Part shown: one piece after another, positions 47,643 through 54,555 of the stretch
Numbering within the stretch: position 1 is the first letter of the stretch
How the letters are laid out: each line of letters starts with the position of its first letter
Source of the DNA: Lobosporangium transversale
Taxonomy: Eukaryota
Assembly (NCBI RefSeq): GCF_002105155.1
Contig: NW_019028988.1
Location: forward strand, 372,001-436,000
Reading direction: 5' to 3'
DNA length: 64,000 bases
Position numbers and translations under genes: made by a program
The notes under the pieces: model-generated
What the model saw: the letters and a program-made list of their open reading frames with translations, nothing else
Databases searched by the model: none
What the model was told of the DNA's origin: nothing

Positions 47643-48245
47643 TCATTCTGTCTTCTCTTCCTGTGATAATCCTTCGAGTAATTTCTTAAGAGCATCTTCA
47701 TTTGCGTTTTTGAGTTCTTTGTCCTTTTGTTCTTTGATCCGTTTCAGCTCCTCTAATGCTGCAGCTTGTTGTGCCTTTCGGACTGCAGCCTCTTCTGCAG
47801 ACGTAGCCGAGATCTTGGATAGTTTGTATTGTAAAGGAGGTGGGACATCTGGATCATCGCAGCTGGATGATAATGAGGACACGTCTCCTATTGCTGTTGC
47901 TGTTGTTGTCGAATACCGGGCGGCATTCAATGCTCGTCTTGGTGAAGTTGGGGATGTGATGGTAGCCCAGGAATGCTCACTGTCCTGATCATCATCACAG
48001 GAACAGATCTGTTCGAGTGATAGACCAGCAAGTGCTTGAGCAATATGAAGTCCACATCCTAAAAGCAAAAAGGAGTGAGATCCATGGTGTCAAAACATAA
48101 ATACTTCCGACGTCGATTGATGGCCATGGCGCCACACCAGTGGTTGCTGCTCTTGTTGTAAAAAAAAAAAAAAAAAAAAAAAAGCGCGCTTCTTACCTTC
48201 CCAGGTATACTTGCCACAGTCATGACAAATCACTCGGTGGCACAT
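47643..48245 (-). CDS. Small protein with N-terminal Cys/His metal-binding module; intron ~48059-48196
   Basis: Spliced MCHRVICHDCGKYTWE/GCGLHIAQALAGLSLEQICSC followed by a charged coiled-coil tail. Confidence 0.75.
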
Positions 48246-49216
48246 TGTTACAAATATCGACTGAGTGTGAATAGGGGATATGAAGCAACAATCAGTAGAT
48301 CGGATGAGGGGACACTGAAAAGTAAAAAGTCGTTCTTATTAATGGAAGGAATGAGTTGAATGAGCAAGAATCTGGTAGAATGAGAATCGAGTGAGAATGG
48401 GAAAAAAAGGTACAAACAAGGAGTGATATTGCGCAGAGGAGGAGAGAGAAAGAGAAGGAGGAAAAAAATATATGTATGTATACATATACGCCGAGCGGCC
48501 CTCTTGCTTTTTAGACGGGACAGAGTTACCTTATTCTGCTACAACAGCCAGAAGCCATTGTTTGTCCTTGTTCTGTTCGCGTCTGTGAGGATTGTAAACA
48601 GAATGTGAGCACAAAAAAGAAATTTCCCCACCATTTTCTTGTGCTCGGTCTTGTTAGTTATTTCCAAACAAAATCCGAGATTGTGTTCCTTTAATTCCCT
48701 ACAATGATACCCAGAATAGTTCCCAGCACTTCATATAGGAGAAATTGGTCCCTGAATGTGCCCGCAATGAGCAGCGAGTGTGTGCGCATGGGTATATGGA
48801 GTAAATGGTATTGGAGTAAAGGGCACTGGAGTTAGTCCTATTGCCGATATGAAGAAGGAAGTAAGGGAGAATAGATAGATTATTAAAAGAACAAAAAGAT
48901 ACAGACTTGCCTCCGTAACCTTTTCTACTGGTGTACTGTGTTGACAAGAAGACAATAATAGGCAATTCTCCAAGCGCAAGTATTCAACTGCTCTGTAGGG
49001 GACAAATGAGACGATCCTTGCATTTTATCACCATCACATCATACCAAATCGCTACCTATTGTACGAAAAGGCGGTGCAATCATTCCATTGGCTTGCAAAA
49101 GAAAAGAAAGTAAATCGGCTCAAAAAGCTTGAAGGCATTCACATCCGGACCCATGGAGTGGTGTCTTTATTGAAGGATTCTTTTTTGTATGCACAATACT
49201 GGTTTTTTTTTTTCTT

Positions 49217-49255
<39 letters not shown>

Positions 49256-49966
49256 AAGCAGACAGGATATATTATAAAAATGGTGGCAAAGGACACAAAG
49301 AAAACAGCTCACTTTAAAAAATATGTGTATTCTTCCCATGCTCAAAATTCCTCCGGACTATCCCGTCGTCCGAAAGATACGCCAATAGGCTATTTGTCAT
49401 CAACAGTCTCATGTCTCGATAAACACTCTAGACTTTACTGATCAAGCTGGAATAAAAATAACGCGTCCATCACAAGTGATTTTGAGGACTTTTTGATCAA
49501 TACAAGACCTTCTACATTGCTCTTTATCTGTCTCTATTCCTTTCTTCCTTTCTTTTTTTTTGTACATAAGAATATAAGGCAGACTAGACTTAGCAGACTA
49601 AGTCCCCTTGGAAGAGGTATCACTTGTAACGAACTTTCTTTTATATTCCTTTATTGTTCATTGCCTTTACACCTTAATATGTTCTTGTTATTATTCCAAT
49701 CTTTTTACTCAGCCACGCAAACATCCATACCATTTTATACAATTCATTTTATACAATTATTTTTCATACAAACACAATGTTGTGTTCGCTTAGATCTGAA
49801 GAAGTAGCAGAAGAAAAAGAGTTTGATCACGATGCCTGGTTGCTCACTATCAATGCACACATATATAGTCCGTCCCATTAAAAAACGAGACATTCCATCT
49901 ATTGTAAAAAGAAGAAATGTATTAGAACACAGAAATAAATAAATAAATAAATTAACCAAGAAAAAA

Positions 49967-50039
49967 AAGTATTATCAAGCCAATACTTACAATTTTTTTA
50001 AGACGAAGGCCTTTCTGGACCTAGTCATGTTTGTAGTAG
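49967..50039 (-). ncRNA. Candidate Fanzor omega-RNA scaffold (3'-end copy)
   Basis: Begins 8 nt after the Fanzor stop codon; nested stems TACAA/TTGTA, GAC/GTC, AGGTC/GGCCT and hairpin AAGTATT/AATACTT. Confidence 0.5.
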
Positions 50040-50047
50040 ATTGTGTC

Positions 50048-52925
50048 CTACTGTTGTTGCCGGCTTGTCTCTCCCCCTCCTCCTGGACCCAGCAAAGGTC
50101 CTTTCGGTGGTCTTGATCCCTCTACTCCTCCTCCTCCTTCATCTGAAAATTTCCTTTTTGTGGATCTGCTACTACCACCACCACTGCCACCACTACCTCC
50201 ACCGCCGCCACTACCGCTAGAAGCTTGGCCTTGAGTTCCTCCGTCCGGCGGCATATATTTTGCAGGTCGTTTTTGCTCTCTTATCTGCGACTCACAGACC
50301 CTTGCGATGTTCTCAGCACCAACAGCATCTCGATCAAAGTATGCTTTACAATTTCGACAGTACTTGGATCGAAAAGGAACATTCTCCAATATACTGTCAC
50401 AGTGAGGCCGTGGACACTTGGCAGATGTGTAGTATTTATGACAACCTACAATGGGGTAGTCTAGAGATTTTGCCTGTTCGAGCCAGATTTAATACTCGTT
50501 AAAAAAAAGACTCAAAAATTAAATGTCATTGATCAAAGGATTTTTTTTTTACCTTTTCAACAAGCTTCTTCATCAATATCCCATGCTTCGATACTTGTCC
50601 TCGGTTTGTCTTGAATGATCCTAGTCCAATACAGATCACCGCATTCGTATTGGCATCTCTTCTTCTTCCATTGCTTCCGCCCGCAAGCTTCAGAATTGCC
50701 TTGATCACATAATCAACGCATCCGTTCTGTGCTTTTCTATTATCCCAGCTATTCCGAACAAACCACCCGTCATTATAGAAATCGACAAGCGCCCTATATA
50801 TAGTCTCCCTATTGTCGTCACTGGTCCTAGATCCACTGCTACTACTGGCCTCAACTCCACTGCTACTACCGGTCCCTGCTCCACTACCAGAGAAACTACC
50901 TCCAGTACTTGATGGAGCTTGATTTAGCGGCAAGCTCATATAAGCGAAATACTGTGTTAAAGTAGGCCTTGAGAATGTCGGAATATTGCTTTCAATCTCT
51001 GTAATTCCTCTTCTAAGCTTTCGCCTCTCTAGCTCGCCCTGAAACTTCTTGGATGGTTTGTAAAGGTACGCTCTAGAAATCCGGAGGATCTCACGTTCGT
51101 TAGGTTTCCTTGGATCCAACTTTGCAATTGTCATCGAGTACCTCTCGCCTGGATCGATCCCAATGATAATGGTACTTTCGGGGGGAGGGCATGCTGCCCG
51201 GGTGTCATATTTAACTTCTACATTCTCGAGGAGACGGGATCTCTGCTTCCAGTTGATCTCACGCCGGGGACTGGGACTCACCGGGGACAGTGGATTTGTG
51301 CTCGATGTACCTTCTTCAGCTGCTTCTTCTCCCTCGTCGCCTTCTAAGAATGGTTCATCAACTTCCAGCAAGTCAATATCGCTGATACCCAGCAAGATAT
51401 CGTCATCTTCATTTCCGTCGTCGTCTCCATCATCACCACCATCACCTGCACCATGGCCTGAAGACGAGGATCCCTGCTGAGCACTTGAAGAAGCCTGGAC
51501 TGCTTGAGATCTTTGAGTATCCGAAGGTTGGGCAGCTTGCGAACCTCTACCTCTTTTTGCTTCGATGTGTCATAGGCAAGAAGTGTTAGGGTAAGGCCGT
51601 TTGTAAAGAACGATGTCCGTAGTTTCCTTCTAGGTCCATCATCAGATTGCAGTCCAACGTCCTTGTATCCTTTCAAGGAAAACAGCTCCTGCAACAATAT
51701 CCCCTTGTGGTTAAGGATCTTGTCCTCTGCAGCCCCCTTGGTACTCATGTTTAGTTCCAACAATTGGACTATTTCCTCTCGAACTGTTGGGTTAGACCAT
51801 AATATATCCAGGAGGCAGGCTTCCGTTAGGCAGAGAGACTGAGGCGGGAAAGCAGACGTAGGGAAATCCAGATATTTTTTGGCAGTTTTTTGCTCAAAAA
51901 AGAATTGGATGGAACTTCTTCCATCGCCTGGAATATCTATGTCAAACTAGACATTATATTGAAGAAATGATTAGGAACATTTCTATAAACATATTATATT
52001 TACCTGCGCATTCCGATAGTGAGACCTTAGCGCTGCTTGAACAGGGACCATGACCATCCGAGGCGACTTGCCGATCACCAAATCGGGATAGATCTGGTTT
52101 AAAGGACCAAGCCCTGTCTTTGCATAGAAGTTTTCGTATGCTTTGAGCTGGGACGGCTTGGCTACGTTCCCTTCGCCTTTTTTCTTCACTTCCCTGCTAT
52201 CAAGAACTTCATCTAGGAGTTGTGGGAGATCAGCTGGATTGGATGGCCCAGTGGTAAGCAGGTTATCGATCCACAAGGCGCAGGCCCAGAAAGCTCGAAT
52301 CCGTGCCTCATTCAACATTTAATAAATGATTGAATGAGCCCTTGAATTGTTGCAGCAAGTTGCTCGGGATTGAGATTGGGATCGGAAGTAGAGTCCAGCT
52401 TGGCAACTACACATGTCTTTAACGTGCCCAGCGTTAATGCAACAGTGGGGTGGACCCTCTTCAACCGTCGGTCCTCGGCAGTAGCCTCCTTCACTTTCCT
52501 GGTCTTATCAGTCTTTCTGATATACTTGGCCTTCCCTTTGTTCTTCTTTTTTTTCTTCTTTTCCTCCTTAACCTCCTCTTCTTTCTCATCCTCTTTTTTT
52601 TCCTTTTCCTTTTTTTTGGGGGACTTTCTTTGATGGCTGGAGCTGACGGGACGGTCGTGTTGTTTGCGATTCGGCTTTGCGCGTTTAGGGATATAGAATC
52701 TAATTAGGAACAACAATGTCAAGTGTTAGATGACTTTTTTTTTTTTTTTTTTTTTTTTTTGTATATGCTTTGGAAAATGTTCATTTGAAGGAGCTTACCT
52801 GGGTTGAGGTTGATTATTTTTATTCTGGTACCTAGCAGATATCGCAGTCCTCATTCTATCATGGTAATGAAGGAATCTTTCAGCGGTTGGTTGCTGCGAG
52901 GCCTGGGTTTGGATCCAGTTGCATA
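50048..52925 (-). pseudogene. Fanzor (TnpB-derived RuvC RNA-guided nuclease) gene; spliced, frameshifted, 5'-truncated
   Basis: SFFTNGLTLTLLAYDT, RuvC-I IIIGIDPGE (51147-51161), ICIGLGSF, GCHKYYTSAKCPRPHC...YCRNC zinc finger, RuvC-III FDRDAVGAENI (50327-50335); introns 52700-52798, 51947-52003, 50474-50552; frameshifts near 52315 and ~51500. Confidence 0.85.
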
Positions 52926-53130
52926 TTTCACAGTACACGTGTTACATGAAAATTTATAATACAGACATACTAACAGTTCTATGTCCCATGGTGTGGTGCC
53001 CGAGACAAACTTGCAGTTTTATTTTGATACAAATTTGGATAAATGCCCCATGGATGTGATGTGTGAACCCACATCCTATTCTCACTTCTGCTCCCTGGTT
53101 ACTATTTGTCTGTCTAAAATTTTTCATGAG

Positions 53131-53203
53131 CTACTACAAACATGACTAGGTCGGAAAAGGCCTTCGTCTTGAAAAAATTGTAAGTATTAGCTTGACAGTG
53201 CTT
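53131..53203 (+). ncRNA. Second, outward-facing copy of the candidate omega-RNA scaffold
   Basis: 89% identical to 49967-50039; differences lie mostly in loops or create G-U pairs. Confidence 0.4.
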
Positions 53204-53778
53204 TCTTGACTAAACTCTTTATTTCTATGCTTGGTCTAGATGGTGTTTTTTTATGGGGAGAACTATTTAGACAACATATAGACCCCACATATCTTAATCC
53301 TAATAAATTGACTTGGTGGCATTGTTGTAAAAAATATCTTTGCTTAAGGGACAGAAAGATAGACACAATCAGGAAAAGGTAGGACAAAGAGTGTCAACAA
53401 GATTGACAAGAGAAAATAGAGTCAAATAACCTTGACTACAAACAGCGCCATAGAATGTCAAAAGAAAAGATGGGAGCTTTATAGGTGAGCTCACAAACTG
53501 AGTTACCGGAAGACAAATGCTTGTTGTGAAAAGGGGAAAAAGATAAATGGCAAGATGAACTGCGGATGAAGAATAAGACATGTGGGGAAAACTGAAGACT
53601 TTATTAAGAAGGAAGTTTCTTTGGCTTTTATACTCGGTAGTTTCTAGGTGAGGCGGACCCGCCTATGACTACAAAGGCTTTGCGCAAAGATTCCTTTAAG
53701 CTGGTTCGACAGATTAGTGGATACAAGATAAACTGAAATTAATTTTAATGACCAGTTGACCAGTCACACCACTTGCAA

Positions 53779-54024
53779 TAACAAGCGAGTCAATTGGCTG
53801 CCAATACATTTAAGAGTATTCAAAAAATATAAGGGATCGCGACCAAATGGAACGGGCTATACCTTATATTTTTAATCTAAAAACGATGATTGAATTGTTC
53901 TGGTGGCATCTCACTACGTGACGGACTTGCAACAATACTCGTAACAAGCGAGCTAATTGGCTGCCAATACACTCGAAAGTATTCAAAAAATATAAGGTAT
54001 CGCGACCAAATGAAACGGGCTATA
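53779..54024 (+). repeat. Imperfect direct repeat of ~83 bp (53779-53861 and 53942-54024)
   Basis: TAACAAGCGAG..AATTGGCTGCCAATACA..AGTATTCAAAAAATATAAGG.ATCGCGACCAAATG.AACGGGCTATA occurs twice. Confidence 0.9.
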
Positions 54025-54555
54025 TCGTGACCAAATAAAATTGGCGATACCAAACTTTTCGTGCCATTGATTTTATTGAACATTGCTGACCAAAAGTATT
54101 CCAAAATTAGACGAGGAGGTGAATTGTTCGGTTTCTGCATCATCAAAGTGTTGAAGAGAGAAGGACAGGGGAAAGAAAGTCCTTATTTTTCGACTTTGCA
54201 AATATCGTCGTTACACGAACTAAAATATGGAATTCTTCACATTCTTTCGTGGGCTTCGATCGTCATTTATTGGTGCGACCGTACCGCAGCTGCCAATAAA
54301 AGTGCAACTCAAAGCTGCAACAGCCCACTTTGATGAGAGAATATAGCCCACTCTTTAGTGTAAAAGTTTATGTCACTTAAACTTCCGCGGAAGCTTTTTC
54401 CGGTGCAAAAAAACGCCGTCTTATGCAGATCCTTCATGTTTAGATTTCTACTTTGAACATGTTATAAAAGGGTTACTGTTCCCTCAACAGAAACCAAAAA
54501 AAAAAAAACCCCCCTCAGTCACTCATTTAGACTATCAGAAATCATACAGTGTACC

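Follow-up and report, generated by a model that had tools for sequence, protein, structure and literature searches.

A broken Fanzor1 element of Lobosporangium transversale, the likely FEN1/EXO1-type fusion of its relatives and an intron in its predicted omegaRNA region

What kind of gene is hidden in five broken open reading frames on the minus strand of a 64,000-nucleotide stretch of DNA from Lobosporangium transversale (assembly GCF_002105155.1, contig NW_019028988.1, positions 372,001 to 436,000; the window in what follows, numbered from its first letter)? An original prediction, made from the letters alone, had joined these pieces into an intron-containing Fanzor, a eukaryotic RNA-guided nuclease, at 49866..53265. 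The region holds a damaged copy of a Fanzor1 element that is multicopy and lacks a transposase in this Mortierellaceae fungus. Five GT-AG joints, a multicopy family, loss of a catalytic Glu, two folds per protein chain in relatives and an intron lying past the stop codon and before the element's right end were observed. The best explanation, which we hold with good confidence, is that the copy is dead, that the full form of the protein is a FEN1/EXO1-Fanzor fusion, and that the omegaRNA, the guide RNA, is assembled by spliceosomal splicing of the 3' end of the mRNA. Taken alone, a Fanzor1 relic is ordinary; the loss of the Glu to Lys, the deleted head and the intron in the omegaRNA region are more unusual than the Fanzor1 assignment itself, and the interest lies in the variant clade behind the relic.

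Fanzor1 identity of the element

The exon structure was derived from contigs of four of eight listed runs (X7 and three DNA runs), compared over 49400-53700; X7, a single run of contigs, is RNA by guess only. The three introns of the original prediction are all GT-AG by their coordinates and each is bridged by X7 contigs. Two further spliced introns, 49990-49899 and 53506-53343, bring the bridged GT-AG joints to five, whereas the three DNA runs bridge none among the joints listed (15 of 16). The acceptor of intron 3 is found at the same place in all eight related loci that show the EYxTS motif. The coding part is built up as follows.

52799..52916, minus strand: coding exon 1, putative remnant of the tail of a FEN/XPG-like head, ending at an internal deletion at about 52917
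52700..52798, minus strand: intron 1, 99 nt, GT-AG, X7 joint
52004..52699, minus strand: coding exon 2, covering the basic linker and the first part of the REC lobe
51947..52003, minus strand: intron 2, 57 nt, GT-AG, X7 joint
50553..51946, minus strand: coding exon 3, with WED and RuvC-I (Asp 51155-51153), a Gly in the canonical position of RuvC-II, and inserts of acidic and Ser/Gly type
50474..50552, minus strand: intron 3, 79 nt, GT-AG, X7 joint
50048..50473, minus strand: last coding exon, with the rearranged RuvC-II site (Lys 50437-50435), a C4 zinc finger, the RuvC-III Asp (50329-50327), a Gly/Ser tail and the stop codon

Joining the exons by coordinates gives one minus-strand frame of 857 residues, with X placed at two 1-nt losses. 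It contains, in the predicted order, IIGIDPG, ICIGLGSF, CHKYYTSAKC...CxxC and DRDAVGAENI; the motifs anticipated from the letters are all present in one frame, except that the residue before YYTS is Lys, the Glu having been lost. The low-complexity acidic and Ser/Gly inserts that had been pointed out are present in coding exon 3. As a side observation, the basic linker (386-416) and the acidic insert (806-905) of the full-length relative P0022 are predicted to be disordered (pLDDT <50), and the window copy has similar inserts.

Several lines of evidence place the protein. The last exon passes the curated cut-off of Pfam PF07282 (28.3 bits versus 26.3), and the window element follows the Fanzor1 motif order D-x(125-275)-TS-x-x-C4 zinc finger-x-RD (Bao and Jurka 2013, PMC3627910; this and other papers are cited from the parts that were accessible). 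The family has Gly/Pro at the canonical RuvC-II site and a Glu moved beside the zinc finger; the corresponding CHEYYTS is read in seven sibling gene models and in contigs of four runs, whereas the window copy has Lys there. The profile and structure comparison proposed with the original prediction yielded a RuvC-type match, and its Fanzor1-type reading was borne out: with a profile built from 92 relatives the top solved structure is SpuFz1 (E 2e-12), which also comes first for an AF2 model of P0022 (pLDDT 83.6; E 1.4e-11), with FEN1/EXO1 at E 2.5e-9 in the same search. Profiles were needed for this, as queries of solved structures with single sequences gave low-complexity matches or none. Pfam found no family in relatives P0006 and P0007. 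The family is nearest to Fanzor1 and not to Fanzor2 or TnpB, an assignment by profile and fold ranking and by the FZ1 listing of Saito rather than by a tree. Since sibling XP_021884711.1 (P0015) is an FZ1 row in Supplementary file 3 of Saito 2023 (PMC10432273), we count the family, which had been thought probably uncharacterised, as catalogued, though apparently unstudied.

The closest named proteins are 12 L. transversale gene models on 10 contigs that differ in length, with 89-96% identity, and collapsed contigs over the element reach about 12-27 times the depth of unique flanks in the three DNA runs, a rough guide that gives no copy number. The expected lack of a transposase was met with in a Pfam scan of eight open reading frames within and around the element, the other long reading frames of the window being unscanned. 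A scan of viral contigs gave 46 pattern matches and no relatives, and a protein search with the broad alignment A2, confined to the size range 2387-5000 aa, found none and is uninformative.

The system can best be compared with SpuFz1 and its element SPu-1 from Spizellomyces punctatus (Bao and Jurka 2013, PMC3627910; Saito 2023, PMC10432273; PDB 8gkh, 9ceu-9cez), with which the window family shares the Fanzor1 fold, the rearranged RuvC, the lack of a transposase and, at its candidate ends, short TA-flanked termini. SPu-1, however, has one intron-less open reading frame of about 635 aa without a FEN head, whereas the Mortierellaceae protein, at 1100-1300 aa, carries a head of 5' nuclease type as well as long inserts that are disordered, and the window family has introns in both the gene and the predicted omegaRNA region.

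The FEN1/EXO1/XPG-like head

Long relatives have about 330 additional N-terminal residues ahead of the Fanzor part. A profile of this head, made from 21 sequences, matches XPG, FEN1 and EXO1 structures (best E 3.8e-9, range to 1e-5), and the head model (pLDDT 93) matches human FEN1 with E 5e-12 and TM 0.66. By profile and model, the head of full-length relatives has a PIN-like fold with a helical arch and an H3TH/H2TH motif. The fold and the seven acidic active-site residues are those of FEN1/EXO1/XPG (Rad2), poxvirus G5 and giant-virus FEN-like proteins (TM 0.65-0.68), but the head differs from Rad2 nucleases in its low identity (13-17%) and in being fused to an RNA-guided nuclease within a transposon. 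All seven acidic metal-binding residues are kept in 10 of the 11 head rows that cover every position, and by the profile alignment these positions presumably map onto the FEN1 residues. The head misses the Pfam XPG cut-offs, and Pfam finds no family in the head of P0022.

Within a set of 170 proteins (the best 150 of 483 hits plus earlier hits) the head profile matches 27, and among the proteins of at least 750 aa it matches 17 of 19 (14 of 16 once the seeds and their twin are set aside). By name, the carriers belong to at least five genera (Mortierella, Entomortierella, Linnemannia, Dissophora, Benniella), and Podila and Linnemannia rows in the accessible part of the table of Saito 2023 (PMC10432273) begin, by eye, like head-bearing relatives. 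In the relatives, two folds, one FEN-like and one Fanzor, are found in one chain according to the models, and the full-length element likely encodes a FEN1/EXO1-type 5' nuclease fused to Fanzor.

The window copy itself would have only the tail of this head. Its exon 1 frame is open back to 52914 and matches P0090 just after the FEN domain, with a score of 47 that none of 100 shuffles reached; P0171 is matched at the same place (E 0.001). Contigs indicate that other copies carry additional sequence at 52916-52918, where 30 loose letters give ten in-frame residues that, together with the next four of the window, match P0171 at 8 of 14 positions by eye. Since exon 1 matches the tail of the head and other copies continue at 52916-52918, the window copy appears to have lost its head by deletion. 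From the loose contig ends and P0007 we infer that an intact FEN-Fanzor fusion may be present in L. transversale.

Apart from this, Atlas places the P0022 head (residues 1-330) near the Pox_G5 and XPG clusters, and the nearest clusters are mostly giant-virus FEN/XPG and poxvirus G5. A viral origin of the head is not claimed, as the giant-virus FEN matches in Atlas and BFVD are not tellingly better than human FEN1.

The intron in the predicted omegaRNA region

The omegaRNA of SpuFz1 covers what follows the stop codon as far as the element's right end, with a further 14-15 nt of flank (Saito 2023, PMC10432273). Fanzor1 scaffolds begin with a stem-loop of about 7 pairs, SpuFz1 and PpFz1 have one more, and the target-site duplication belongs to the scaffold (Yoon 2023, PMC10711439; Xu 2024, PMC11423790). 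In the window the corresponding stretch measures 184 nt, or 92 nt once spliced, and would be divided as follows.

49991..50047, minus strand: predicted omegaRNA 5' exon, stem-loop 1 (about 50026-50002) and A-rich linker
49899..49990, minus strand: GT-AG intron of 92 nt within the predicted omegaRNA, X7 contig joint 49898-49991
49864..49898, minus strand: predicted 3' exon of the omegaRNA scaffold, stem-loop 2, closed with TA according to folds
49849..49863, minus strand: predicted guide segment, the flank just past the right end, at single-copy depth; the guide role is suggested by Saito 2023 (PMC10432273)

The X7 contig across this intron has a depth of 241.5, the highest of the five X7 joints, and the spliced transcript crosses the right end in X7. 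After splicing, the 92 nt are predicted to form two hairpins and an A-rich linker; the TA, together with the final base of the upstream exon, closes the second hairpin. This fold has a z of -2.5, with 4 of 300 shuffles as good, versus a z of -0.7 and 66 of 300 for the unspliced form. The layout of stem-loop 1, one further stem-loop and a target-site duplication within a scaffold of 75-90 nt resembles that of SpuFz1 and PpFz1, and by eye the base of stem-loop 2 is TGG...CTA in both SpuFz1 and the window. The first 10-12 nt of the predicted flank guide are found nowhere else in the window.

Relatives were examined in 12 metagenome loci, 11 of which were used past the stop codon (L006 was dropped, and the stop of L009 was read by eye). 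A GTAAGY donor occurs 25-75 nt past the stop in 8 of the 11 versus 0.023 expected per 50 nt; it falls in the column of the window donor in 6 of 11 and 3 nt later in one more. Locus L010, which is genomic as its last coding intron is present, has no intron at that point and resembles the spliced product, with a donor-like site 15 nt further on. Between L003 and L004 all 20 gap positions lie inside introns and none across 70 exon bases. A consensus stem-loop 1 has four pairs, with compensatory changes in each, and is broken in up to 3 of 10 rows. Since the predicted guide-RNA scaffold is split by an intron, the guide would likely need splicing before it can work, and we consider it fairly probable that the omegaRNA is built by splicing. 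As a separate observation, three loci may have a probable second GT-AG intron (L003:547-642, L004:1797-1885, L007:755-835), which would end 7 nt before the element end.

The following points weigh against a FEN1/EXO1-Fanzor fusion with a spliced omegaRNA. Regarding the head, only one relative of the 11 compared gave the exon 1 remnant a score above shuffles, no match came out when the remnant region was searched with a profile, the 12 near-identical L. transversale gene models all lack the head, and the role given to it is a supposition. Regarding the guide, the omegaRNA, its ends and its protein binding are predictions only; the consensus stem-loop 1 has only 4 pairs (-3.4 kcal/mol), and the spliced forms of all five relatives show two hairpins but do not outdo their shuffles (z -0.4 to +0.6); for L009 and L011 the ends used in folding were picked by eye. 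L003 folds better when its second intron is retained (z -2.35), such a donor is missing from 3 of 11 loci, a single metagenome supplied 6 of the 12 loci, L003 and L004 are 94% alike, and the X7 evidence is that of one run. Finally, the left end is a candidate only and the transposase a supposition.

A different view would make the intron either a passenger that is tolerated or an off-switch: the omegaRNA would act while the intron is looped out, or would derive from unspliced RNA, and splicing would be neutral or competing, as with the group I introns of IStrons. The 3' exon contains most of stem-loop 2, which needs no splicing to form, the length of Fanzor1 scaffolds ranges over 75-150 nt with what is described as weak constraint past stem-loop 1 (Xu 2024, PMC11423790), and L003 folds well with intron 2 retained. 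Nevertheless, intron-less L010 resembles the spliced product, indels concentrate in introns and the joint depth is the highest of the five, and we regard a passenger or off-switch intron as rather unlikely. IStrons also combine splicing and omegaRNA in one transcript at the right end of a transposon, but they are whole-element, self-splicing group I introns in which splicing destroys the omegaRNA (PMC13565253), whereas the short spliceosomal intron of the window lies inside the scaffold and its splicing would build the omegaRNA. CrFNuc of Chlamydomonas reinhardtii is likewise an intron-containing Fanzor1 with its RNA in the mRNA 3' UTR (untranslated region), but it is associated with Helitron2, the accessible text reports neither an intron within the RNA nor an extra nuclease head, and no cleavage was detected (Jiang 2023, PMC10530073).

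Neither a FEN/XPG-Fanzor fusion nor an intron-split omegaRNA is described in the literature searched, a search with most subscription papers, patents and Repbase outside its scope. The accessible part of the Yoon 2023 supplement (PMC10711439) has Mortierellaceae rows and no XPG or FEN1, and a genus-name search of two supplement files of Jiang 2023 (PMC10530073) gave no match. The Fanzor1 omegaRNAs that have been characterised are encoded in DNA without interruptions, and in mining pipelines the sequence past the stop is used unaltered. If the proposal is correct, a scaffold intron would make such Fanzors seem inactive when expressed from genomic sequence, and guide production would be tied to host mRNA splicing, with the RNA part of this OMEGA system being host-dependent.

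Element ends, mode of action and decay

The borders of the element and its repeats are listed here.

49864..49879, plus strand: right end, TA 49864-49865 (likely target-site duplication) and 14-nt terminal inverted repeat 49866-49879
53125..53269, plus strand: internal inverted copy of the stop-to-right-end stretch, with the intron shortened to 60 nt (53180-53239)
53343..53506, minus strand: intron of 164 nt in the 5' part of the transcript, X7 joint, GT/AG checked
53779..53861, minus strand: inner copy of an 83-nt direct repeat, beginning with TA and the motif 53859-53846 resembling the terminal inverted repeat; alternative left end
53942..54024, minus strand: outer copy of the 83-nt direct repeat, TA 54024-54023 and the similar motif 54022-54009; best candidate left end

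The right end proposed originally, 49866, was confirmed: it is bordered by TA (49865-49864), depth is single-copy below about 49866, other X7 contigs have different sequence from 49863 onward, and relatives L003, L004 and L007 terminate in the same CTATA, up to which L003 and L004 are 94% alike and beyond which they are unrelated. The long inverted repeats thought to enclose the element are real, with a 77-nt core (49963-50039 / 53131-53207, 88%, E 7e-22) that with gaps extends to 49862-50045 / 53125-53269, but the left one is internal. A left terminus at 53265 was rejected, since depth stays at about 25-60 times that of the flank out to 53700, the limit of the stretch compared; the repeat at 53125-53269 is an inverted copy inside the element, on a high-depth contig common to the family. 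A 14-nt motif resembling the right terminus, with TA before it, heads each 83-nt repeat, and position 54024 is the likely candidate for the left end, some 750 nt further out than first placed. Three terminal motifs were found versus 0.11 expected, but the pattern was drawn from these sites and the count is circular and is not taken as evidence.

Two side observations concern these repeats. A motif like TTGGTCRCGATA recurs in both orientations at window positions 53840-54050, and is found a little beyond the candidate left end as well; a transposase may bind to it, or the left end may lie further out. The limits of the internal inverted copy nearly coincide with those of the predicted omegaRNA region, as in a 'ghost' unit without a Fanzor, and its stem-loop 1 differs chiefly in the loop; within the 5' part of the transcript this copy is an antisense version of that region, and pairing with the transcript 3' end is conceivable.

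The following mode of action can be envisaged. The TA-flanked element would likely be moved in trans by a Tc1/mariner-like transposase encoded elsewhere in the genome, as for the mariner-type mobilization of SPu-1 with TA and short termini (Bao and Jurka 2013, PMC3627910); TA and the 14-nt motif occur at both candidate ends of the window element, a pattern drawn from the same sites. A single RNA polymerase II transcript would run from the gene through the right end into the flank, splicing out the 92-nt intron would bring stem-loop 1 together with stem-loop 2, the TA and the guide, and the scaffold of about 90 nt with its guide would then be excised as omegaRNA. Fanzor would cut empty donor sites adjoining a TA-ending motif, and the tethered FEN/EXO1-like head would, as we are slightly inclined to think, trim 5' ends or flaps at the break, which would favour homologous copying of the element back in. 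Such restorative homing by cutting empty sites was proposed for OMEGA systems, and eukaryotes lean on end-joining, which hampers homing (review PMC13565253); the FEN1-like G5 of poxviruses is required for double-strand break repair (PMC9415595).

The head might instead act on RNA, by 5' to 3' trimming of the mRNA or by a flap cut that frees the omegaRNA from the spliced 3' UTR. The omegaRNA must be released from a long capped mRNA, XRN-type folds are among the weaker structure matches, and FEN/EXO1 enzymes act on RNA-containing substrates. The best matches, however, are DNA flap and resection enzymes, SpuFz1 obtains its omegaRNA without such a head, and poxvirus G5 is needed for break repair, which makes an RNA-acting head doubtful.

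With a head that trims DNA ends, the Mortierellaceae Fanzor1 clade would combine a spliceosome-built guide, with one or two GT-AG introns placed between the stem-loops at a position that is conserved, and a two-enzyme fusion that cuts the target and trims its ends; this combination is put forward tentatively, and we stop just short of calling it probable. If true, a two-enzyme OMEGA fusion would steer its own repair outcome, which bears on the open question of how RNA-guided homing pays in eukaryotes that are prone to end-joining. Editors have been engineered as nuclease-exonuclease fusions, for which a FEN/EXO1-Fanzor would be a natural model. Both the fusion and the spliced guide are directly testable in intact relatives, the window copy itself being only a relic.

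That the family has been domesticated, or that the head is its mobility enzyme, instead of the family riding as a passenger on a mariner-type system, would agree with the missing transposase among the eight reading frames scanned and with the retention of the fusion in at least five genera, but it is very improbable in view of the many near-identical dispersed copies, the decay of the window copy and the TA and short terminal repeats as in SPu-1; FEN folds are not known to be transposases.

The window copy is dead and internally deleted. Its Lys at 50437-50435, in the rearranged RuvC-II site, replaces the catalytic Glu that seven sibling models and the contigs of each of the four runs show, and on this ground the copy is a dead Fanzor1 member. 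Relative to siblings, both of the suspected frameshifts proved to be 1-nt losses in A-runs, at about 52317 (exon 2) and 51553 (exon 3). By in-frame deletions, exon 2 has further lost 69 nt at about 52195 and about 66 nt at about 52667, and exon 3 has lost 3 nt at about 51887 and 24 nt at about 50878. Intact siblings had been suspected, and P0014, P0015, P0016 and P0017 indeed retain all three catalytic residues (D-E-D). Sibling model P0013 has the same Glu-to-Lys change as the window copy, and a nuclease-dead lineage may have been copied after inactivation.

That the window copy is intact and its frameshifts are homopolymer errors of the assembly is hardly credible: both losses lie in A-runs and the extra base is present in contigs of all four runs, but these contigs reflect the family consensus and not the window copy, because contigs drop single-copy alleles, while the Glu-to-Lys change, which P0013 shares, and the 69-nt, about 66-nt and head deletions are no homopolymer errors, and six other reading frames of the window, of 650-1060 codons, are open.

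The sole match from Rfam lies outside the element: a weak one to snR42 at 49009-49287 on the minus strand (22.5 bits versus a gathering score of 61), which is probably due to chance. A small spliced host gene at 47643-48242, also on the minus strand, has a last exon without a Pfam match and a Cys/His-rich motif at its start.

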